DNA of 64,000 nucleotides from Chlorobiota bacterium. Lineage in GTDB: Bacteria; Bacteroidota; Ignavibacteria; Kapaibacteriales; NICIL-2. Numbering within the stretch: the first letter of the stretch is position 1; the number at the start of each line of letters is the position of its first letter. Positions 12,862 through 54,391 of this stretch are shown piece by piece. The position numbers and the translations under genes were made by a program. The notes beneath the pieces were generated by a model. The model saw only the letters and a program-made list of their open reading frames with translations, was not told the origin of the DNA and searched no databases. The stretch lies in NCBI GenBank assembly GCA_044228685.1, contig JBGAUL010000011.1, positions 13,886-77,885 of the forward strand, read 5' to 3'.

Positions 12862-14253
12862 GTGAATCCTCCTTCTCTTCTCGGTCATAGCGCTCAATTA
12901 CTCCGCATCATTCGCAAGTCGCCACAACCGGCAGATGTTCTGACCTCGGGCTATATGCGCGACCATAAGTACATCGGTGCTTCCGATCGCCGCTTCGTGT
13001 CCGCGATGGTTTTTATGTGTCAGCGACTACTCGGCAGCCTGGACATCATCACAGAAGAAATTTTACGCAGCGATACTCGCTTTAGCGGCGTTGAAATCAA
13101 TCACTTGCAAGTCGCCTCGGCGGCTGTTTTGCACACTGATTTGGGACACAGTGCCTTTCATTCAGAATCGTCGCGCACTGCAGAGCAAAACAGCAAGCTC
13201 AGTGAATTTGTTGCTGAATTCCTTGTGCAGCGATGTTCCCTCGACCCTGAAGTTGCCAAGGGTTTTATCTCCGTCGCCGAGCAGAGTTTGGAGCGTATTC
13301 TGGGAAGAAATGATGATGTATCTCAGGTCTGTCGGCACGCAATGCCGCTGTGGATCATCAAAGCACTTGGACGTATCTACGATGAGTCCACGGTTTTGTC
13401 TCTATGTCGAAGCTTCCTACAGCCTGCGCCACTCTTTCTTCGCGTCAATACTCTGCAAATCAGTCGTGATGAGGTATTGCGTCGACTGTCGGACAACGGC
13501 ATTGCCGCCGAGGCCGGTCGTTATTCTCCTTACGCTATTTGTATCCACGAGCGAACCCAATTGACACAGACGGAGCTCTACGCGAGTGGAGCGATTGAGG
13601 TTCAGGATGAGGGATCGCAAATCGTCAGTTTGGCTCTTGATGTTCACGAACATGCTTCAGTGCTCGATGCATGCGCCGGTGCCGGTGGTAAGAGTTTGCA
13701 CATTGCAGTTCTTCAGCACGACAACGGTCGTATCGTGGCATCTGATCGTGAACCCAAGCGTATGCGTGAATTGCAGCAACGTGCTTCGAAAGCAGGACTG
13801 AAGTCTATCGAGCTAAAGGCTTTGGCTTCTGCAGATCCGCCCGCTAATCCTCGTCAATTGTTTGATTATGTCTTGATTGACGCACCCTGCAGTGGCATGG
13901 GAACGATCCGTCGTTCGCCTATGCTGAAATGGCGCTTAAGCGAAGATGCTCTGCGTCGTATAAACGAACGTCAATTTGAAATCATACAGCAGTATGCAGC
14001 TTGGTTGAAACCAGGCGGTGTTTTGGAATACTGCACCTGCTCTATTCTGCCGGAAGAGAATGAAGATATTGTGCGAAGATTCATGACAGCTCAACCAAGC
14101 TTTTCGGCCGATGCTGTTAAAGTGCATCTTAGCGCTCATCAATGCGAGATTCCTGAGCTGACGGACCAAGACTTCGAACTGCGTCTTGATCCTCTGCATC
14201 ACCAAAGTGATGGCTTTTATATTGCGCGATTACTCAAGAACGCTGAAGAATGA
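12862..14253 (+). CDS. rsmB: 16S rRNA m5C methyltransferase, NOL1/NOP2/Sun family (RsmB-like)
   Basis: SAM motifs DACAGAGGKS and DAPCSGMGTIRR, with an N-terminal NusB-like region. Confidence 0.8.
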   Translation: MNPPSLLGHSAQLLRIIRKSPQPADVLTSGYMRDHKYIGASDRRFVSAMVFMCQRLLGSLDIITEEILRSDTRFSGVEINHLQVASAAVLHTDLGHSAFHSESSRTAEQNSKLSEFVAEFLVQRCSLDPEVAKGFISVAEQSLERILGRNDDVSQVCRHAMPLWIIKALGRIYDESTVLSLCRSFLQPAPLFLRVNTLQISRDEVLRRLSDNGIAAEAGRYSPYAICIHERTQLTQTELYASGAIEVQDEGSQIVSLALDVHEHASVLDACAGAGGKSLHIAVLQHDNGRIVASDREPKRMRELQQRASKAGLKSIELKALASADPPANPRQLFDYVLIDAPCSGMGTIRRSPMLKWRLSEDALRRINERQFEIIQQYAAWLKPGGVLEYCTCSILPEENEDIVRRFMTAQPSFSADAVKVHLSAHQCEIPELTDQDFELRLDPLHHQSDGFYIARLLKNAEE

Positions 14254-32128: not shown

Positions 32129-32261
32129 TACATCTCCTCCCTGTGTCATAAGACCGTCGCCGAGCAACCGTCCTCACTCTCTACTAATCCACTTATGCAC
32201 TCATGCATTGACTTCGTGCGCTCCATTCTCGAGTGCGTAGACATTGTGTAAGCAACGACAT

Positions 32262-32300
32262 TTAAAAACAAAAGCCAATCGTGTGATTGGCTTTTGAATA
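32262..32300. terminator. Bidirectional rho-independent terminator between convergent genes
   Basis: Perfect 11-bp inverted repeat aaaagccaatc-gtgt-gattggctttt (32270-32295), flanked by an A-run upstream and a T-run downstream. It gives a U-tract on both strands, stronger on the minus strand. Confidence 0.6.
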
Positions 32301-32332
32301 GATCGATGGTGTGCTGGAGCACAGCGTAGTTC

Positions 32333-33997
32333 TTACCAGCGACGACGCTTTGGTGGTTGATCGTTGCCATATCCAAAGGAATTGCCGTCGCGACGATTTC
32401 CTTCATTGGGGTTTGGGCGACCGAAGTTGCGGTTTGGACGAGGTCCGCGATTGAATCCCGGACGCTTGTTGTAACCATTACCTTCACGCATTGCGTTTTG
32501 GTCGAAGCGTGAATAGTTTGCTCCTTCACGATTACCAAAGTTCTCGCGACGATCGTAGCTCTCGTCGTAGAAGCTGTTTGTGCTTTCTGCTTGATTGGTA
32601 GCCGGTTGTTGCTCTTCACGAATTGCATTTGGTGGTGCTTCACGATCATCGCGGAAGCCCGGACGATAGCGACCATTATTGCGATTGTTTCTGTAACCGT
32701 TGTTGTTTGAGCGACGATTGTTGCCTTGGTTATCCTGACGATTGTTGCCGTGTGAACGGTAGCCTCCGCCATTGTTTGGTGGAACGCCTTCAGCGCGAGG
32801 TCCATCGTAGCGTGGTTGCTCCGGACGTGGTGCATCGCCATCGCGAGGAGGACGATCGCCGTTTTGGAATCGACGGTTGTTGTTGTTGTTATTATTATCC
32901 CAGCGACGCTTGTTGTTCCAACGACGTGGGCCATTATTGTTCCAGCCTCCGCCGCGTTCACGATAGCCATCACGACCACCATGTTCGCGTTGCGGTTCGC
33001 GTTGTTCTTCACCTGCTTCGCCGCCTTCGAACATTTGCTCAGCATCGCCTAAAACACTGACCGGCTCATAATCATCGATGCTAATTGGACGTGGTGCATC
33101 GTCATCGGATTCCGGAACCGGAATGGCTGTAACGACTTCTTCCAGCGGATCAGCGTCGGTAGATGCACGGATCAAACGTCGAACTGCAGGACGCTGTTGT
33201 TGCTCTGTTGAGTCTTCTTCTCTCTGTGCGCTCTGCTCCTGTGTTGCAGTGCTAGCTTGAACACGTTGCTCAGCATAGACTTCGACATCATCAAACACTT
33301 CAGAAGAACCTTCAATGACGATTACGTATTCGCCGCGGAATTTGTGCTCTTCAAAATGGGCTTCCAATTGCTTCAATGAACCGTATTGATGTGCCTCCGA
33401 ACTCATGGTGAGGTTGCAACCAACATAGGCTTGACGATCCGGCATTACTTCAGCGAGAGCAGCGAGTATGGTCTTGAGACGATATGGTGTATCCATCAAG
33501 ACAATTGTTCTATTCTCACGAGCAAGCTTGCGGATCTCGCGATCACGCTCTTCGTTTTTGCGGCTCAGAAAACCTGCATAGATGAACTGACGTGTATTAA
33601 AAGTGCTACGTACGAGTGCGGTGAGCACGCTCGATGCACCGGGTAATACGCGCACATCAATGTTGTACTTAACAGCAGCTTTGACCAGGATATCACCTGG
33701 ATCTGCCAACAGTGGTGTACCTGCATCGCTGATGAGCGCAAGTTTCTTTCCTGCTGTTAAGAGCTTCATGCATTCGACGCTTGATTCAGTGTCATTGTGC
33801 TCATTAAGCTCAATAATCTCCTTCTCCATGTCGTAGTGCTTTAACAAGCGAATCGCCTCTTTTGACTCTTCGCAAACGACAACGTCTGATTCTTTGAGTG
33901 CTTCAAGCGCTCTCAGCGTAATGTCGCTATAGTTGCCGATCGGCGTCGCAACGACCGATAATGTTCCGGCTGCCTTGGGTGTGGCAGATTTTTTCAT
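32333..33997 (-). CDS. rsmI: 16S rRNA 2'-O-methyltransferase RsmI fused to a long C-terminal low-complexity (acidic then RG/N/Y-rich) tail
   Basis: N-terminal roughly 230 aa GTLSVVATPIGNYSDITLRALEALKESDVVVCEE...LISDAGTPLLADPG (tetrapyrrole-methylase fold, RsmI signature). A further roughly 320 aa are rich in D/E, then R, G, N, Y (RRWNNKRRWDNNNNNNNRRF...GYRNNRNNGRYRPGF). Confidence 0.8.
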   Translation of the reverse strand: MKKSATPKAAGTLSVVATPIGNYSDITLRALEALKESDVVVCEESKEAIRLLKHYDMEKEIIELNEHNDTESSVECMKLLTAGKKLALISDAGTPLLADPGDILVKAAVKYNIDVRVLPGASSVLTALVRSTFNTRQFIYAGFLSRKNEERDREIRKLARENRTIVLMDTPYRLKTILAALAEVMPDRQAYVGCNLTMSSEAHQYGSLKQLEAHFEEHKFRGEYVIVIEGSSEVFDDVEVYAEQRVQASTATQEQSAQREEDSTEQQQRPAVRRLIRASTDADPLEEVVTAIPVPESDDDAPRPISIDDYEPVSVLGDAEQMFEGGEAGEEQREPQREHGGRDGYRERGGGWNNNGPRRWNNKRRWDNNNNNNNRRFQNGDRPPRDGDAPRPEQPRYDGPRAEGVPPNNGGGYRSHGNNRQDNQGNNRRSNNNGYRNNRNNGRYRPGFRDDREAPPNAIREEQQPATNQAESTNSFYDESYDRRENFGNREGANYSRFDQNAMREGNGYNKRPGFNRGPRPNRNFGRPNPNEGNRRDGNSFGYGNDQPPKRRRW

Positions 33998-35079
33998 ATA
34001 AAAACTGTGAGGTATATGTGTGTGGATGTATTAATCTTTTTGTCTGTTGTTGTAGCTGCTACAGTACCAAAGCTTAGTGAATACGGTACAGCTTCACCTA
34101 TTATTCTTCTTCTCTTCACCCTTTTTGAGTATTGACCTTGAAAGTTGCTTCTCAAAATTCTTGACTTGCGATTCCAATCATGACTATTCTAATTCTTTCC
34201 GAAGCGGTCACATGCGCTGCTTAAACCGGCTCTGACTTTTTTGAAGTGCCTCTCTGTTCCAGCGTCTGCTAGTTTGGTCTAGTCTCAGCTAGTCTTTACT
34301 GCACCTTGCAATGCATGCTTTCTGGATTTCATTAGCATCACTCATGATCACTCATGGAAGCCTTTACAGATTCCCGATGCTACCGTCAATTGATTCTGCA
34401 CTCTCCGTGTGCTGACTTTTGTGTGGATAATCACACCCTATTTTCTTCTCTACACTGAAGCCAATGGCAATTGTTACCGTGTACTATCTAGTACCGAATC
34501 GTCGTCATTTCTAGCTGTTCATGCCCTTAATGAAGTCAGATTCTGACCAACGATGTGCTTAGCTATCCGAGGTGGAAAGCGGTAGATTACCCCTTGAACT
34601 TCGAGAACTAACTACGAACTGCAAACTTGGAAATGAGCGTGTGACTCATCAGTCCAACGCTGTCAATTCATTTGAGCGAATTGAAGCTCCTTCACCTTCC
34701 ATTATCAAACCTACAGTGCTGCTGTCTGAGGCATGGAAGTCCGCCGTTCATGTTGTACATCTTGTATCAACCTTCCGGCACTGAGAGACAGATCAAAGTT
34801 ACAACATCAAACTACAATCTCCAACAAAAACACGATGTTGTTTGTTCGGTTACAAATCGGAGTTTATTAACTCAATACCTCATTGACCAATTTCATCACT
34901 ACATCAGTATCAGCTATGAGAGCATCCTCTTCTCAACATGTACTCGGGTTGTCACGAATAAAATCTATCGACGAGGACTAGGCAGGTACTTGGTGATTCT
35001 CGTGGTGTCGGCGTTATGAAAGATTCAGACTTTCAGCTCAACGCGCTGCATTTCTGTTGCAATATACGAATAAGGGAGC

Positions 35080-35120
35080 TTAGAAAAACGAACAGCCATC
35101 CGAGAGACGGATGGCTGTTG
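35080..35120 (-). terminator. Rho-independent terminator downstream of the thioredoxin-like gene
   Basis: Perfect 12-bp stem aacagccatccg / cggatggctgtt with loop agaga (35091-35119). On the minus transcript it is followed by CGUUUUUCU. Confidence 0.6.
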
Positions 35121-35145
35121 AAAATATTTGCTGTTGGTGTGAGAC

Positions 35146-43621: not shown

Positions 43622-45676
43622 TTAGTGGACGACCATTAGCTGCTGCACATAGCTTCCACTGCGCGTTTCCACCAGAACTTGATAGGAACCTGTAGCAAGC
43701 TCAGAAACATCTAGATTTAGGCGATTATCGACATTTTGAGCCTGCACTGCGAATTCCTTCACTACACGTCCCATCATATCAGACAAGCGCACCAGAGTAA
43801 TGGTTTCATTCTTTGAATTCAGGGCTAGATGAAGCACTGAGGCTGCCGGATTTGGATGGAAAAAGAGTCGATCCGACGATTCTTCTGAAACTGCTGCGGG
43901 AAGAAGCTTTGCGCTGTAATAGATACCGGAGCCGTTAGAGGCTGTAAGAACGTTTGGATCAGAAAGACCAACTGCGGTACAGTATTGATTATCTAGACCA
44001 GCTTTGTGTTGAGTCCAGGTAGACGCATTGTCTGTACTTGACCACACAGCATTACCAAATGTCGCAGCATAGAGTGTGCCTTCATCTCGACACACTGCAC
44101 TGACTCCAGTTTGCAATATGGAATTCAGAGAGCGGTGTTCCCAGCTAGAACCTTCGTAATTACTGAAATAGATGTCGTCGGTGTAAGTACTTGCGATGAT
44201 CTTGTCGTTCGTAATGACCAACGATTGAATTGACAAGCTACTATCACGAAACACAAGCTGCCATGACTTTGTTGTGTCAACTGAGCGGTAGATGCAGCCT
44301 TCGCTACTTCCAGCGAAGAGATTGCCTCGCACTCTGACGAGACAGAGAATTGTTGATGAAGCAATACTCGGTCTATCGAATGATTCACCGTTATCAGTTG
44401 TTACATACAACCCACTATCGAGCGAACCAAAGATCTCATGACCGGCAAAGCTGATTCCACAATACAATGTGCGACCTGATAAGAAGAACTGATTCCAAGA
44501 ATCGCCGTTATCGGAAGAGTAATAAAATCCGTCATCTGTCAGTGCAAGGACGATTCCGTTGTTCGCGCTTATCTGATACACCATACCACTGAAATCCAAC
44601 CATTCCCAATTCATACCACCATCGTTTGATCTAAGTATTCCATCGCCTGCCGCAAAGCAGCTCGAATTGTTTTGACAAAATGAATACATAGGTGCTGCCG
44701 TCAATCCATCGCTGCAGTCTGTAAAGCTCAAGCCGTTGTCAGATGAATAGTAAACGCCATAGTCATAGCTTCCGGCAAATACCTCAGAGCCATTGTAACA
44801 AAGTGCATACACGGTCATTTGGCTTAAGTCTGAATTCTGCCATGCTCCTGTTCCAACGCGAGAGATGACGCCCGAAGTATCGGTACCGACGAAGATTCTA
44901 TCTGCATGCAGCATGAGCGACCAGACTGATTGAGCTCCGATACCGGAATTCGTCCACGTTTTGGCACCATCGACACTTCTAAACAATCCTTGCTCTCCAC
45001 CTACATACAGCTGAGTTGAATCTCCGCATACAGCGTACAAGCCCTTCTTGCTGACAAGTCCGGTCTTTGTCCAGGTTTTACCATTGTCTTTTGAACGATA
45101 CAAACCACTCTGGTCAGCCAGCGCATATATCTCGGATCCAATGATGCACACGGAGTAAACCGTCTCACCTTTCAGACCTTGAGTCCACTCTGCACCATCA
45201 CTACTACAAAACACTCCGTTTGCATCGGTACCAACACATATAAGATCAGTTGTTGCTGCAACACTCCAAACATATTCTGAGGTGAGATTCTTCGTCCATG
45301 TCGAACCACCATCCAAGCTCTTGAACACACCACCGGAACCGTCTTCATCTGAATATCCAATCCCGGCATACACTGCTTTACCATCTGTGCAGAGCGCATT
45401 TATACTGGCTGAATGTATTCCTTCGCTCAGCCAGTGCTTTCCGGCATCGGTTGATATAAAGAGACCAACCTCGGTTCCGGCGAGCATCGTATTGGCATCA
45501 AGTGTGACGAGCGAAAGCACGGTTCCACCATCACCGCCACTACTATGATTCCACTGGAGTTGTTGTGCTTGGAGATTCACTGTCGTCACGAGACAGAGTG
45601 CAGCACACAAAACAAATGAGTAAAAGATGGCTTTCATGACAGTACGGAATATTTGTAAAGCGATGCGCTGGAGCAT
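43622..45676 (-). CDS. BNR/Asp-box repeat beta-propeller protein with T9SS C-terminal sorting domain
   Basis: About 11 S-x-D-x-G-x-T-W repeats (TDAGKHW, LDGGSTW, SKDNGKTW, SVDGAKTW...). C-terminus FHPNPAASVLHLAL...LATGSYQVLVETRSGSYVQQLMVVH. The likely start is MKAIFYSFVLCAALCLV (about 45637). Confidence 0.6.
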   Translation of the reverse strand: MLQRIALQIFRTVMKAIFYSFVLCAALCLVTTVNLQAQQLQWNHSSGGDGGTVLSLVTLDANTMLAGTEVGLFISTDAGKHWLSEGIHSASINALCTDGKAVYAGIGYSDEDGSGGVFKSLDGGSTWTKNLTSEYVWSVAATTDLICVGTDANGVFCSSDGAEWTQGLKGETVYSVCIIGSEIYALADQSGLYRSKDNGKTWTKTGLVSKKGLYAVCGDSTQLYVGGEQGLFRSVDGAKTWTNSGIGAQSVWSLMLHADRIFVGTDTSGVISRVGTGAWQNSDLSQMTVYALCYNGSEVFAGSYDYGVYYSSDNGLSFTDCSDGLTAAPMYSFCQNNSSCFAAGDGILRSNDGGMNWEWLDFSGMVYQISANNGIVLALTDDGFYYSSDNGDSWNQFFLSGRTLYCGISFAGHEIFGSLDSGLYVTTDNGESFDRPSIASSTILCLVRVRGNLFAGSSEGCIYRSVDTTKSWQLVFRDSSLSIQSLVITNDKIIASTYTDDIYFSNYEGSSWEHRSLNSILQTGVSAVCRDEGTLYAATFGNAVWSSTDNASTWTQHKAGLDNQYCTAVGLSDPNVLTASNGSGIYYSAKLLPAAVSEESSDRLFFHPNPAASVLHLALNSKNETITLVRLSDMMGRVVKEFAVQAQNVDNRLNLDVSELATGSYQVLVETRSGSYVQQLMVVH

Positions 45677-50913: not shown

Positions 50914-51015
50914 AATTCTCCTAAGACTACGCTATACTACGATAGAATTACGGTCATGTGCAACAAAACATTTTTTCGCGCGCTCCAGCTCCTCTATTTT
51001 CGTACATCGTTTAGT

Positions 51016-51173
51016 AAAGGTGCTTCACTGTATAGCTGAAGAGAATAGGGAATCCCGTTAAATCCGGGAACGGTTGCGCCGCCGTGAAGGTTGACAAACT
51101 GTCACTAAATCCACTGCTTTATTGCGGGAAGGACGACAGTGCGAATGAAACCTGAGTCGGAAGACCTGCCTTT
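51016..51173 (+). promoter_or_regulatory. Cobalamin (AdoCbl) riboswitch
   Basis: GAATAGGGAATCCCGTTAAATCCGGGAACGGTTGCGCCGCCGTGAAGG matches the conserved core (AGGGAA..GGTG.AATCC..GC.G..CCCGCCACUG-like). The B12 box AGTCGGAAGACCTGCC is at 51154-51170. Candidate P1 is AAAGG(51016-20)/CCTTT(51169-73). The downstream leader has hairpins and a T9 run before the ATG at 51322. Confidence 0.8.
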
Positions 51174-51321
51174 GCTACTCATCGTGTCCACATGGACTGC
51201 ACTGCGCCAACAGTGCGATGAGGAAACTTCTTCGTTGTGCACTGCGGTCCTCGCAGCACCTTCTAGTCGTTTCCCCTTTCTTTTTTTCGTCGTCCGGCAG
51301 ACGGCACAACTACATTCTAAT

Positions 51322-52419
51322 ATGCGTATTTCTTTTGCGTCACTCGTGCGAGTGTTGCTTGTCGTATCCTGTCTTGTCGGACTCTATAGCTGCACCGACA
51401 CCATAGCACCGGCCGGCACCGGCAGTACTGTCGCCGACTCATCGGTCATTGTTGTTAATCAAGGGGGTTATCAACAGGACAACTCATCTCTTAGTCGAAT
51501 CCTCCGTCGTAGCGATTCTGTGGATCGTAGCTGGTTCTCTAGTGCCAATTCCGGACGAAAGCTCGGAGCAAATGCAAACAACATGCTCATCGTCGGTGAC
51601 ACCGCCTTCATTAGCGTTACCGGTTCTCATACCATCGAGGTTATCAATGTTCGTACCGGTACTCTTGTCAAAACACTGCACCTCGATAACGACGAACAAC
51701 CATGGGTTTTCACACAAGTCAATAGCAGCCTCGCAGCCGTCTCAACAAATAACGCCGATGGCTTGCGCTTGTTTAATCCTAAAACACTGGAGCTTCTGGA
51801 ACGCGTCACAACAGGACCTGCAACACAAGGCATCGCCGCGACTGCCTCTTCGATCTTCGTTGCCAACTCCGGTGCGGGAAGTCTTCGAGATACTGCTGCA
51901 GGCGCCGGCACGATTAGCGTCGTTGACGCGGTGAGTCGTATGACAACGCACCAAATCAACTGCGGCAAGAACGTCACAGAACTTATTTGCAGCGACGATG
52001 CAAAACGTGTTTACGCCTTTGTATCTGAGCTGTGGCCAAGTAAGAAACAACAAGTTGTTGAATATGATGCCGTGAGTTTTCTTGAACGACGTCGCTGGAC
52101 TTTTACAGCTTTGGGATTCATGAACTACTATCAGAACGCAGTGTACGTTTTGGCAAAAGTTGATTCCAACGATGCTGCTTGGAGTGTGCTACGTATTGAT
52201 GTCTCACAGAGCTCCCCAACGCCAACTGCCCTCTTCACTCTTCCCGCGAGCTTTATGCCGAATGGGATGAATATTCGTCGCAGCGATGGAACATTTTGGA
52301 TCTGCGACGCCGTTGATTTCGCCAGCAATGGCTTTGTCTCGGTCATGGATGCACGTGGCACCCAACTCAAGCGCTTCGGCGTTGGTTTAAACCCAGGCAA
52401 CATTTGCTTTTTCCATTGA
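51322..52419 (+). CDS. Surface lipoprotein with YVTN/YncE-type beta-propeller repeats, BtuG-like candidate
   Basis: Lipoprotein signal MRISFASLVRVLLVVSCLVGLYSCTD, and repeats of the type FVANSGAGSL...ISVVD. The longer ORF from 51139 would run through the riboswitch, so 51322 is the supported start. Immediately upstream of the TonB-dependent receptor. Confidence 0.55.
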   Translation: MRISFASLVRVLLVVSCLVGLYSCTDTIAPAGTGSTVADSSVIVVNQGGYQQDNSSLSRILRRSDSVDRSWFSSANSGRKLGANANNMLIVGDTAFISVTGSHTIEVINVRTGTLVKTLHLDNDEQPWVFTQVNSSLAAVSTNNADGLRLFNPKTLELLERVTTGPATQGIAATASSIFVANSGAGSLRDTAAGAGTISVVDAVSRMTTHQINCGKNVTELICSDDAKRVYAFVSELWPSKKQQVVEYDAVSFLERRRWTFTALGFMNYYQNAVYVLAKVDSNDAAWSVLRIDVSQSSPTPTALFTLPASFMPNGMNIRRSDGTFWICDAVDFASNGFVSVMDARGTQLKRFGVGLNPGNICFFH

Positions 52420-52432
52420 ACCTCGTCAATAG

Positions 52433-54391
52433 TTGAACATTCGAGTTCTGATATTGTGTGCCCTGTGCTTGCTACAGGGTCGACTTGATGCATCCGTTGC
52501 ACAGCGCGACACGAGCAGGTATAAGGTTGCGCCTGTGCAGGTTGAAGCCGCACGAGTTGAGCCCGCTCGATTGGTCTCTGGTTCTAGCCTTGCGATTCTC
52601 AGCGATTCCCAATTCACGCGATTGAATATTCGGCAGAGTTCGGATATTCTTCGCATGCTTCCGGGCGTGTTCATACATGAGTATGGCGGATTAGGTGGAA
52701 TAAAGACAGTGTCGCTGAGAGGCGCAACTGCCGCGCAAAGTGCCATCAGCATCGACGGAATGAGTTTGAATTCCTCGCAGAATTCAATCGTCGATCTCAG
52801 CCTGATTCCAACCGGCATACTATCAGAAGTATCTGTTCACGATATTAGCGATCTCTCCGCATCGAACGCCAATGCAATTGGTGGAACGGTATTGATGCAC
52901 ACTCGGAGTCTATCGGACAGCGTTTCACACCTTCGTGCGACGCTGTCCTATGGTTCATGGAATGAACTCAGTGCGGATATCCGATCAAGTTTTGCTCTTG
53001 GCGCATCGTACTTCGCGGCTCTGGGTTTTATGCATCGCCGATGCGACGGTAACTACTCATTCGCATTCAACAACTTTGGTCGTACTGAAACACTACAACG
53101 ACAGAACGCGGATTTATCTGAGTACCAAGTTCATGCTCAGATTGAAGGTAGCGGTGCCGGAGTGAATACTAAGTCATTGCTCATTGCAACGCAGTCGGAT
53201 CGAGGTGCACCGGGTTCAGTGACACAGGGCAACGTTGGACAAAGCTTTGCTCGACTCAACGATCAGCAAGTTATTCTCATTGAGAAAATCAAATTCAATC
53301 TCGATTCCGAGCAAGCGTTGAGTCTGAGCCTGAGTGCAAAACTGAGCAAACAGGTTTATGCAGACCGGAGCTCGCAGTCAATTGGGGTTGCTTTCACGAA
53401 TACATTTCGTGAGCAAGACTGGGGACTGCACCTGCATACACGAAGAAACGTCCTTTCGTGGCTTCAAGCTGAATCGAGCGCGGACCTCGGTCGCGCAGCA
53501 TTGCAGGGCGACCTTCTTAGCGCCGGCGTTGGCAAGTCCGTGCAACGCATCAATGCAGGTATCGGATTTTCACTGAGTACACGCACATTGCTCGTAACAA
53601 ACTCCTTGAGTCTCACGCCGCTCGTCGGACTGCGCTTCGACGCATTGAGCGATGCTCGTCCTTTTTTATCGCCTCGTGCCGGCCTGATCCTGCAATACAC
53701 CGACATACTTGTAATGCGACTCAACTGGGCTCGCGCCTTTCGTCAGCCTTCTTTCAACGAACTCTATTACCAGAACTACGGGAGCACGAATCTGTCGGCC
53801 GAGACATCAGAGTCAGTGAGTGCGGGTTTCGATCTTCATCTTCCACAAGTCGCTTCCATACAAAGCACACTGGCACTGAGTACATTTCACCGCTACACCA
53901 CTAATCAAATCATGGCTGTTCCCCGAAGTCCTTTGACTTGGAGCGCTGTGAATATTGGCGTGGTTGAAGCAAACGGACTTGAGACTGCTGCTGCTTTATC
54001 ACTCGATAGCATCGTACATATTCGCGTCTCTTACACCTACCAAGACGTTCGCGATGCACGTTCGGGCAGTATTCACGAAGGGCAGAGAATTATCTACACA
54101 CCTGATCAACTTCTGGCACTGAGTGCCGGGTTTGATGTGCTGGGATTTCGCTTCGGAGCACAGTTTAGTTTTGTATCGCGGCGCTATTCACAAGCTGACA
54201 ACGCGCCGGAATCTCTACTCCCTGCGTGCACGACTATAGGATGCAGTGTCGAGCGACGATTCAGATTCGCTCAAGTGTATGCATCGCTACGCTTTAGCCT
54301 CGACAATCTGACCGACCAGCAGTACATCATTATCCCCAATTATCCAATGCCTGGACGCTCCTTTCGTCTTAGTGTTGATGTTGGCTTGTAG
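52433..54391 (+). CDS. btuB: TonB-dependent outer-membrane receptor, BtuB-like (vitamin B12 transporter candidate)
   Basis: Plug-domain motifs ...ILRMLPGVFIHEYGGLGGIKTVSLRGATAAQSAISIDGMSLN... resemble BtuB, with a 22-strand barrel-like remainder. Downstream of the cobalamin riboswitch. Confidence 0.7.
   Translation: MNIRVLILCALCLLQGRLDASVAQRDTSRYKVAPVQVEAARVEPARLVSGSSLAILSDSQFTRLNIRQSSDILRMLPGVFIHEYGGLGGIKTVSLRGATAAQSAISIDGMSLNSSQNSIVDLSLIPTGILSEVSVHDISDLSASNANAIGGTVLMHTRSLSDSVSHLRATLSYGSWNELSADIRSSFALGASYFAALGFMHRRCDGNYSFAFNNFGRTETLQRQNADLSEYQVHAQIEGSGAGVNTKSLLIATQSDRGAPGSVTQGNVGQSFARLNDQQVILIEKIKFNLDSEQALSLSLSAKLSKQVYADRSSQSIGVAFTNTFREQDWGLHLHTRRNVLSWLQAESSADLGRAALQGDLLSAGVGKSVQRINAGIGFSLSTRTLLVTNSLSLTPLVGLRFDALSDARPFLSPRAGLILQYTDILVMRLNWARAFRQPSFNELYYQNYGSTNLSAETSESVSAGFDLHLPQVASIQSTLALSTFHRYTTNQIMAVPRSPLTWSAVNIGVVEANGLETAAALSLDSIVHIRVSYTYQDVRDARSGSIHEGQRIIYTPDQLLALSAGFDVLGFRFGAQFSFVSRRYSQADNAPESLLPACTTIGCSVERRFRFAQVYASLRFSLDNLTDQQYIIIPNYPMPGRSFRLSVDVGL

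Follow-up and report, generated by a model that had tools for sequence, protein, structure and literature searches.

The best described member of the RsmI family, which 2'-O-methylates C1402 of 16S rRNA, is the enzyme of Escherichia coli (E. coli), for which both a crystal structure (PDB 5HW4) and a 2026 cryo-electron microscopy structure in complex with the 30S subunit (PDB 9PZG), the first RsmI-30S structure, are available (PMC13037946). E. coli RsmI works as a dimer, and the 42-residue, three-helix C-terminal domain (CTD) of the auxiliary protomer is its only contact with helix h23b; removal of the CTD or of its third helix nearly abolishes methylation, and the authors considered the h23b interaction likely to be conserved across the RsmI family, with Bacteroidota left unmentioned (PMC13037946). 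A second, minimal architecture without the CTD is represented by a 242-aa protein (PDB 1WYZ). Here, we describe the RsmI encoded in a 64,000-nt stretch of a Chlorobiota bacterium contig (assembly GCA_044228685.1, contig JBGAUL010000011.1, positions 13,886 to 77,885; hereafter, the window), in which the catalytic core continues, in frame, into a 322-aa tail that is predicted to be intrinsically disordered. As judged from sequence comparisons, what is new here is what this tail replaces; that is, the CTD is absent across the sampled Bacteroidota, and in this clade only, a tail is found in its place.

The complete rsmI gene occupies positions 32333..33997 of the window on the minus strand (554 codons plus the stop codon at 32333-32335), starts with ATG and has zero internal stops, with the stop-to-stop frame opening just 33 nt upstream of the ATG. 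Orthologous single genes are present in the same synteny in three related loci (L001-L003), and a protein 100% identical to the window RsmI (P0001) is encoded on a 115-kb NCBI contig. Residues 1-232 (33302..33997, minus strand) make up the catalytic core, i.e., the N-terminal domain (NTD) and the class III TP_methylase domain, based on profiles, PDB matches, and AlphaFold2 (AF2) modeling. Specifically, Pfam TP_methylase (PF00590) matches residues 12-211 (E=7e-32), the RsmI equivalog model of NCBIfam (TIGR00096) is passed with 195.3 bits vs. a cutoff of 167.9, and the PDB entries 3KWP, 9PZG, and 5HW4 match residues 5-240 with E=1e-38 to 1e-34; the E. coli-specific model NF011570 remains below its cutoff (144.8 vs. 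502), as expected given the distant phylum. In the AF2 model, which was based on a 23-sequence alignment, strands and helices alternate through residues 12-230 at a predicted local distance difference test (pLDDT) of 85-95, and the fold of the core extends to about residue 232. The original prediction for this gene, which placed the end of a conserved methylase core at about residue 235, was therefore right about the core and slightly too generous about where it ends.

The active site is conserved as well. The Mg2+ ligands E44/D92/D100 of E. coli RsmI align with E43/D91/D99 of the window RsmI, the S-adenosylmethionine (SAM)-site residues E170/E227 align with D169/E223, and H68 aligns with H67 (see PMC13037946 for the roles of the E. 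coli Mg2+-ligand and SAM-site residues). In an alignment of 120 homologues, D91 and D99 show no variation and the conservation of E43 is at least 90%; in the 23-sequence alignment, none of the three varies. A difference is seen at Y103/H104 of the E. coli enzyme, which contact A790 and correspond to D102/I103 in the window RsmI. On this sequence evidence, the window encodes the RsmI orthologue (16S rRNA C1402 2'-O-methyltransferase) of a Bacteroidota member resembling Kapaibacterium; its active site is intact, and it presumably catalyzes the same reaction as canonical RsmI, 2'-O-methylation of C1402.

While the NTD, the class III core, the equivalog match, and the Mg2+/SAM residues are shared with canonical RsmI, what follows the core is different. 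No match to the CTD family PF23016 (RsmI_C) was found in the window RsmI even at E<=1, and the TIGR00096 profile is matched at positions 2-225 of 275 only, because the canonical CTD is missing. A custom hidden Markov model (HMM) of the CTD, built from 28 canonical genomes, detected the domain in 20 of the 24 canonical RsmIs in our hit list vs. 0 of the 96 with a tail (best E 2.9), with the window RsmI at E=8.7. The possibility that a CTD remnant is hidden inside the tail was thus ruled out by the PF23016 search and the custom HMM. The tail occupies the position of the canonical three-helix CTD, and the idea in the original prediction that it is an addition to an otherwise normal RsmI has to be given up, since it sits where the absent CTD would be. 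Note that we consider the CTD a mark of the canonical architecture and not of orthology, because the other sampled RsmIs of Bacteroidota and Ignavibacteriales are without it as well.

To see how the three C-terminal states are distributed, we followed the rsmI frame beyond the end of the core in 80 named genomes. In Firmicutes, Acidobacteriota, Proteobacteria, Cyanobacteria, and most phyla outside the Fibrobacteres-Chlorobi-Bacteroidetes (FCB) group, the core is mostly followed by 48-63 residues (range 48-73), i.e., the canonical state, and this CTD stretch bears a motif of the ..(K/R)(K/R)E(V/A)Y.. type (..KREVY..). In Bacteroidia, Flavobacteriales, Sphingobacteriaceae/Pedobacter, Chitinophagales, Ignavibacteriales, Melioribacteraceae, and Candidatus Thermokryptus, 0-27 residues follow, whereas the closest relatives of the window RsmI in this survey continue for >300 residues. 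The CTD is lacking in all sampled loci of Bacteroidota, Ignavibacteriales, and Thermokryptus (L005-L010, L012, L014-L017, L021-L022, L024, L029, L034, L036, L039, L042, L045, L048, L050-L051, L053, L057-L058, L063-L067, L071-L074, L076, L080, and L083). Among the 120 best database matches to the window RsmI, 92 have at least 100 residues past the core; the first 96 of these matches constitute the tailed group, and PF23016 is absent from 96/96. In total, tails of 70-460 aa are present in about 95 relatives, which derive from metagenome-assembled genomes (MAGs) labeled Candidatus Kapaibacterium sp., Kapaibacteriota, 'Bacteroidota bacterium', 'Chlorobiota bacterium', or 'Ignavibacteria bacterium', with Kapaibacterium itself being placed in the class Eximiradiia of the Bacteroidota.

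A neighbor-joining tree of the cores, which carries no support values, grouped all of the tailed proteins into a single clade; its sister is the group of CTD-less Ignavibacteriales and Thermokryptus, and it branches from within CTD-less Bacteroidota. The closest cores outside the tailed clade, at 42-47% identity, are those of CTD-less minimal RsmIs of Ignavibacteriales, Melioribacteraceae, and Thermokryptus (e.g., 1WYZ and loci L005-L008, L014-L017, L021, L039, and L064 have this minimal architecture), which share with the window clade the lack of the CTD but stop at most 27 residues past the core. Judged from the cores, the simplest history would be loss of the CTD in the stem of the Bacteroidota followed by a single gain of the tail. 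The tail is hence specific to one lineage, which answers the question of the original prediction about orthologues in related genomes.

Other searches added little to this distribution. Scanning the genome collection with the single protein confirmed nothing, and an alignment-based rescan of the same collection returned distant RsmIs only (used for the CTD comparison above), with no close relatives. The back-translated pattern ENFGNRE-x-ANY of the tail had zero matches in metagenome contigs, even though it matches the window and L001-L003; this result is uninformative about how exclusive the pattern is, because the collection appears to lack the subclade of the window. When tail residues 340-554 were used as a phmmer query on 1.84 billion representative proteins, the only match was the protein's own cluster, at a scale where short motifs cannot reach significance; no candidates, not even the protein itself, came out of a word-index search for homologues of the last 93 aa. 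Full-text searching found no literature on RsmI tails or on CTD-less RsmI lineages, nor any case of a tailed rRNA methyltransferase in the literature searched.

The tail of the window RsmI consists of two compositionally distinct parts, as the original prediction had recognized. The first is an acidic leader, which takes the place of the missing CTD (residues 233-340; 32978..33301, minus strand); residues 238-345 contain 10 K+R and 27 D+E (net -17), and AF2 gives pLDDT 43-60 across the block with a low-confidence helix at residues 238-254. The second is a basic, Asn/Arg/Gly/Pro-rich, aromatic-studded block (residues 341-554; 32336..32977, minus strand) with a fraction of charged residues of 0.32, where residues 346-554 are 21% N, 19% R, 13% G, and 10% P (net +17) and the protein terminates in KRRRW. 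Disorder, also part of the original prediction, is what both AF2 and composition predict: apart from the weak helix just mentioned, there is no secondary structure, residues 256-554 are nearly all at pLDDT <50, and the tail falls on the disordered side of the charge-hydropathy (Uversky) plot, with a charged fraction of 0.33 and a net charge near zero.

Several short motifs are embedded in the tail. DDYEPV (residues 308-313; 33059..33076, minus strand) lies in the acidic leader and is common only to the two or three closest relatives (DDYEPV in P0001 and P0002, DEYAPV in P0003). A doubled RRW(N/D)N motif, RRWNNKRRWDN (residues 358-368; 32894..32926, minus strand), is found with both copies in P0001, P0002, P0006, and P0007, as RRF plus RRW in P0003, and in a degenerate form in P0008. 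Further downstream, alignments of close relatives revealed a conserved distal block, FYDESYDRRENFGNREGANYSRFD (residues 476-499; 32501..32572, minus strand), which reads FYDESYDxRENFGNREGANYSxFD among the nearest relatives and whose back-translated pattern has one match in the window and one each in L001-L003, always within the rsmI tail. Finally, the basic-aromatic end PPKRRRW (residues 548-554; 32336..32356, minus strand) corresponds to a terminal PPK(R/K)R(R/K)W that is common to the nearest relatives.

How closely the tail resembles known low-complexity regions depends on which feature is considered. The likeness to RGG-type regions suggested by the original prediction holds for a few relatives (P0003, P0041, and P0043), which have dense glycine- and arginine-rich (GAR)-like RGG/GRG, FSREGG, and GGF repeats, but not for the window tail, which contains one RGG and 5 RG/GR vs. 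11 RN/NR dipeptides, i.e., Asn rather than Gly is the main spacer, and no clustered RGG/RG repeats as in an RGG/GAR box. It does share with such regions the combination of disorder, Arg, and aromatics. The suggested prion-like character was not borne out: the richest 60-aa N/Q window (residues 418-477) is 33% N+Q yet 28% charged, which is not a prion-like composition by this compositional proxy. What the tail does have are the multivalent Arg/aromatic stickers, in a disordered and aliphatic-poor chain, that are typical of sticker-spacer intrinsically disordered regions (IDRs), with 22 aromatic residues (about 1 per 10 positions), 12 of them adjacent to Arg, and a charge patterning (kappa) of 0.22 vs. 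a shuffled mean of 0.19. The window tail is not repetitive, and DNA tandem repeats were ruled out as its origin, as none except (GTT)5 is present in the tail.

Since the source is evidently a metagenome-assembled contig, and several frames are open in this low-complexity DNA, we considered whether a frameshift or a lost stop from sequencing or assembly might have joined RsmI to a downstream sequence or gene. An open frame of 320 codons has P ~2e-7 under uniform codons, but this value overstates the significance because low-complexity DNA leaves other frames open too, and the argument from chance being weak, it is the comparative evidence that decides whether the tail is real. Core and tail form one gene in three independent syntenic assemblies, i.e., GCA_044224515.1 and two Logan SRA assemblies (L001-L003), the latter two with identical context. 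The closest relative, P0002, on a 525-kb NCBI contig, shows 53% identity over 100% of the query, and its contig shares with the window the gene order of two AhpC/TSA genes, the long rsmI, DUF1232, DUF3098, GH113, SBP_bac_5, AlbA_2, and RecQ. More broadly, about 95 relatives from NCBI, JGI, ENA, and Logan have the fused, uninterrupted frame. The tail DNA offers no tandem repeats to collapse, no intrinsic terminator was found between core and tail, and a terminator-like hairpin with a 12-bp stem and a T-run (32269..32296, minus strand) lies 37 nt past the rsmI stop. A tail encoded as a separate neighboring gene was likewise ruled out, as a search up to 3 kb from rsmI in 16 relatives that lack a tail detected its positive controls but no stand-alone tail-like ORF. 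An artefact is thus very improbable in our view, and on these genome comparisons the tail is real, neither a product of assembly nor a fused neighbor; the two findings that could have overturned the original prediction of a single long reading frame, a stop or frameshift after the core and a separate downstream tail gene, did not materialize. Two alternative-frame ORFs overlap the tail (32146-33045, minus strand, 299 aa, and 32623-33060, plus strand, 145 aa), with translations rich in T/V/A/I or C/H/R; these look like by-products of biased codons (AAC/CGT-type, stop-free in other frames) and not genes, because the substitution pattern fits the RsmI frame.

The substitution pattern also speaks to whether the tail matters to the cell. 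In codon alignments in the RsmI frame, the core had a proportion of nonsynonymous differences (pN) of 0.13, compared to 0.39 for the tail and 0.27 for its last 85 aa, with a synonymous proportion (pS) of 0.80 (range 0.76-0.93); because synonymous sites are saturated, we used only pN and a shuffle null instead of dN/dS. The motif-bearing end of the tail thus stands at 0.27 vs. 0.42-0.46 in its surroundings, and tail alignments with the five closest relatives exceeded composition-matched shuffles by z=34, 15, 14, 6, and 5. By these measures the tail is under selection across the clade. Alternatively, the tail could be a near-neutral appendage, that is, a tolerated extension that arose by a stop-codon shift or repeat expansion after the CTD was lost and that has, at most, solubility or entropic-bristle effects. 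Very fast turnover, to the point that distant tails cannot be aligned, whole-repeat copy-number variation within a single cluster of at least 90% identity (below), and the tail-less sister lineages, which apparently cope, are what such an appendage would be expected to show. On the other hand, the tail is kept in all of the roughly 95 sampled clade members with the frame open for ~1 kb in divergent genomes, its composition is tightly constrained, its motif blocks and basic terminus are conserved, and its pN is well under the saturated pS. We therefore regard neutrality as rather improbable; if the tail were functionless after all, it would merely be a curiosity of low-complexity evolution.

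The compositional constraint is best seen across the 89 tails of at least 100 aa. The distal 65% is net-positive in 87 of them, the last ten residues have a net charge of at least +3 in 67, and the first third is net-acidic in 45; the medians are 27% K+R, 20% D+E, 14% G, 9% aromatic, and 4% aliphatic residues, the last compared to 27% in the core. Among 96 tail endings, 32 consist of PP plus 3-4 basic residues and [W/Y/S], 14 are KRWRR-type, and 2 are [KR][KR]RW, with the PP-basic-W/Y/S endings reaching even the distant KKRD-repeat subclade. A skeleton NR..[AV]NY[ST]..N.Y..[KR][KR]RW is common to the subclade of the window and the next one (P0009-P0022), whose cores are only ~45-50% identical. 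It appears from these sequences that turnover is fast while the architecture is kept, i.e., a basic, aromatic-studded distal part, usually a basic end, and an acidic leader in about half of the tails. Many relatives have tandem units, each with 2-3 basic residues, 2-3 acidic residues, Gly, and one aromatic (e.g., DSGGYKKRDG, AGYKKRDD, DRRGGSDRPPFKKFDD, and GERSFRDRDERRGG). In the DSGGYKKRDG subclade (P0084-P0098 and cluster members P0127-P0139), 13-29 copies were counted, and protein length, which runs from 449 to 649 aa, leaves a remainder of 9 on division by 10 in every case; as this is true even of the members of a single cluster with at least 90% identity, these tails differ by whole 10-aa units; the variation reflects either rapid evolution or repeat collapse in short-read assemblies. 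In addition, a low-complexity N-terminal extension of 70-175 aa precedes the core in P0026, P0028, P0035, P0064, P0068, and P0094, and is strongly acidic in P0026 and P0028 (with DADDGEED repeats in P0028).

Based on these patterns, we favor, at about even odds (a probability of roughly 0.5), the reading that the tail is a flexible rRNA/30S tether standing in for the lost CTD. RNA or ribosome tethering and condensate behavior, the functions suggested by the original prediction, both stay plausible. Under this model, a lineage without the three-helix CTD that canonical RsmI uses to reach helix h23b on the 30S platform would have given rise to one clade that gained a long, disordered polyampholyte tail at the CTD position. 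The distal basic, aromatic region would bind rRNA, on or near the 30S platform, by electrostatics and stacking, with the RRW motifs, the ENFGNREGANYSxFD block, and the terminal PPKRRRW as the candidate rRNA-contacting elements; if so, the distal motifs, including the PPKRRRW end and ENFGNREGANYS, would be important to what the tail contributes. Such contact might let the enzyme bind late pre-30S or 30S particles more tightly and stay on them for longer, supplying, as a substitute or an addition, the distal contact given by the CTD in E. coli. Since E. coli RsmI is a dimer, two tails per enzyme could provide avidity, assuming that the window RsmI dimerizes as well. The variable middle of the tail would act as a spacer, and so would the acidic leader, which may also serve as an intramolecular electrostatic mask limiting non-specific RNA binding. 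Autoinhibition by the acidic block may find an analogy in Hfq, whose acidic disordered C-terminal tail is reported to autoregulate the protein through such masking (PMC5606850).

Several observations weigh against the tether model. Its main weakness is that many RsmIs of Bacteroidota and Ignavibacteriales have neither CTD nor tail, and therefore an FCB-type core may recognize the 30S subunit without any C-terminal element, in which case no 'replacement' would be needed. Moreover, AF2 gave no sign of the conserved motifs folding or docking onto the core, and the tail, being near net-neutral overall, is less suited to binding RNA than a purely basic one would be. The tails of distant clade members align with the window tail no better than shuffled sequence (z ~0-4), and any specific contact must hence rest on composition or on very short motifs. 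Finally, the hit list was pre-filtered by shared words, and tail-less members of the clade may be under-sampled in it.

The short motifs could also be read differently, with DDYEPV, the two RRW copies, ENFGNREGANYSxFD, and PPKRRRW docking a protein partner and the rest of the tail being a variable tether; candidate partners would be ribosomal proteins, helicases, RNases, or other late 30S factors (e.g., RsmH). Indeed, docking mediated by short linear motifs typically involves a fixed terminal motif on a tether whose length varies, and both the much better preservation of the motif blocks than of their surroundings and the skeleton shared between the two subclades with divergent cores would be in keeping with such docking. 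However, motifs rich in R, N, and aromatics suit RNA contacts equally, distant clade members are without them, and the phmmer search found them in no other protein family, which is weak evidence given the scale of that search. We consider docking of a protein partner unlikely.

The tandem units and the Arg/aromatic stickers raise yet another scenario, in which the tail, as a multivalent sticker-spacer IDR (Arg/aromatic stickers with N/G/S/D spacers), drives or partitions RsmI into RNA-rich condensates of small-subunit maturation. A parallel for this would be fibrillarin/Nop1, an rRNA ribose 2'-O-methyltransferase with an N-terminal GAR domain, a class I Rossmann fold, and guidance by snoRNAs. 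Both enzymes combine rRNA 2'-O-methylation with an Arg-rich, aromatic-containing disordered region, and some RsmI relatives even have GAR-like repeats; but RsmI has a class III fold and is a stand-alone, site-specific enzyme, and its tail is C-terminal and, in the window, Asn-rich with one RGG. By this comparison, the resemblance would be convergent at most. The spacing of the aromatics, the tandem units of relatives (e.g., DSGGYKKRDG or DRRGGSDRPPFKKFDD), and the GAR-like repeats of P0003, P0041, and P0043 would all suit a condensate-forming chain, and condensates are documented for the IDR of the Bacteroides thetaiotaomicron (B. thetaiotaomicron) Rho factor (PMC11347177) and for type II RhlB helicases (PMC13462270). 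Set against this, RsmI is presumably a low-abundance enzyme and not a scaffold, the window tail is a near-neutral polyampholyte with well-mixed charges that need not phase-separate, and partitioning into condensates is compatible with, and hard to tell from, plain RNA tethering. Like partner docking, condensate partitioning therefore seems to us an unlikely explanation, and its boldest version is a long shot: the tail as a resident or nucleator of RNA-rich condensates that concentrate late 30S maturation, a convergent bacterial counterpart of the fibrillarin GAR domain in the nucleolus, with a disordered region replacing an essential folded rRNA-recognition domain.

For the tether model, the nearest precedent in a related lineage is, by analogy, provided by the Rho factors of the FCB group, whose Arg-rich disordered insertions have been linked to higher RNA affinity (PMC11347177). 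They share with the tailed RsmIs the broad lineage and the principle of an RNA enzyme with a lineage-variable, compositionally extreme, predicted-disordered, and Arg-rich region, which in Rho was associated with higher RNA affinity in Bacteroides fragilis and with phase separation in B. thetaiotaomicron (PMC11347177). The differences are that the Rho region is an insertion between the N-terminal and RNA-binding domains of another enzyme and has no sequence similarity to the RsmI tail. Similarly, the C-terminal extensions of RNase E and of DEAD-box helicases (PMC4435900, PMC13462270) place basic, Arg-rich disorder on RNA enzymes and have short conserved 'microdomains' amid fast-evolving sequence, but these are degradosome or helicase proteins with no sequence homology to the RsmI tail.

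Among the ORFs of the window that are at least 150 aa long, a low-entropy segment of protein sequence is seen in the RsmI tail only. No comparable tail was found on the QueA, AspRS, RecQ, UvrA, UvrC, or RsmB/F proteins of the window; the RsmB/F-family 16S rRNA methyltransferase (463 aa; 12862-14253, plus strand), which has no low-complexity extension, acts as a control from the same genome and shows the tail to be specific to RsmI. We also considered, and set aside, the idea that low-complexity tails are common throughout this genome, as the 64 kb contain no second example. Between the start of rsmI and the terminator of the AhpC/TSA gene (35091-35119, minus strand) lies a 1.15-kb stretch (33998-35145) without a convincing ORF, for which we found no Rfam match, no repeats, and no second copy in the window; the matching spacer in L001-L003 is only ~400-470 bp long and shows no similarity to it. 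Elsewhere, a cobalamin riboswitch (RF00174, 90.9 bits; 51001-51187, plus strand) is located upstream of a 426-aa ORF without a Pfam match (51139-52419), whose true start is probably later than the listed GTG, which overlaps the aptamer; a TonB-dependent receptor follows at 52433-54391. A 684-aa BNR/sortilin-like protein (43622-45676, minus strand) carries a C-terminal Por_Secre_tail, a type IX secretion sorting domain, which fits an FCB-group or Bacteroidota origin of the window.

In conclusion, our results provide two exceptions to the inference that the h23b interaction is conserved across the RsmI family (PMC13037946), i.e., the sampled Bacteroidota and Ignavibacteriales, which have no CTD, and one clade that has disordered tails with conserved end motifs instead. 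How CTD-less RsmIs recognize the 30S platform is a question in its own right, and the folded CTD, the absence of any C-terminal element, and the disordered tail together constitute a natural three-state series for studying how a site-specific rRNA methyltransferase recognizes this platform. The same series also allows one to ask whether a disordered tether can replace a folded recognition domain. Further, with this clade, an rRNA-modification enzyme is added to the few RNA enzymes of bacteria that have low-complexity regions specific to certain lineages, i.e., Rho, RNase E, and DEAD-box helicases, whose regions are being studied for the formation of condensates.

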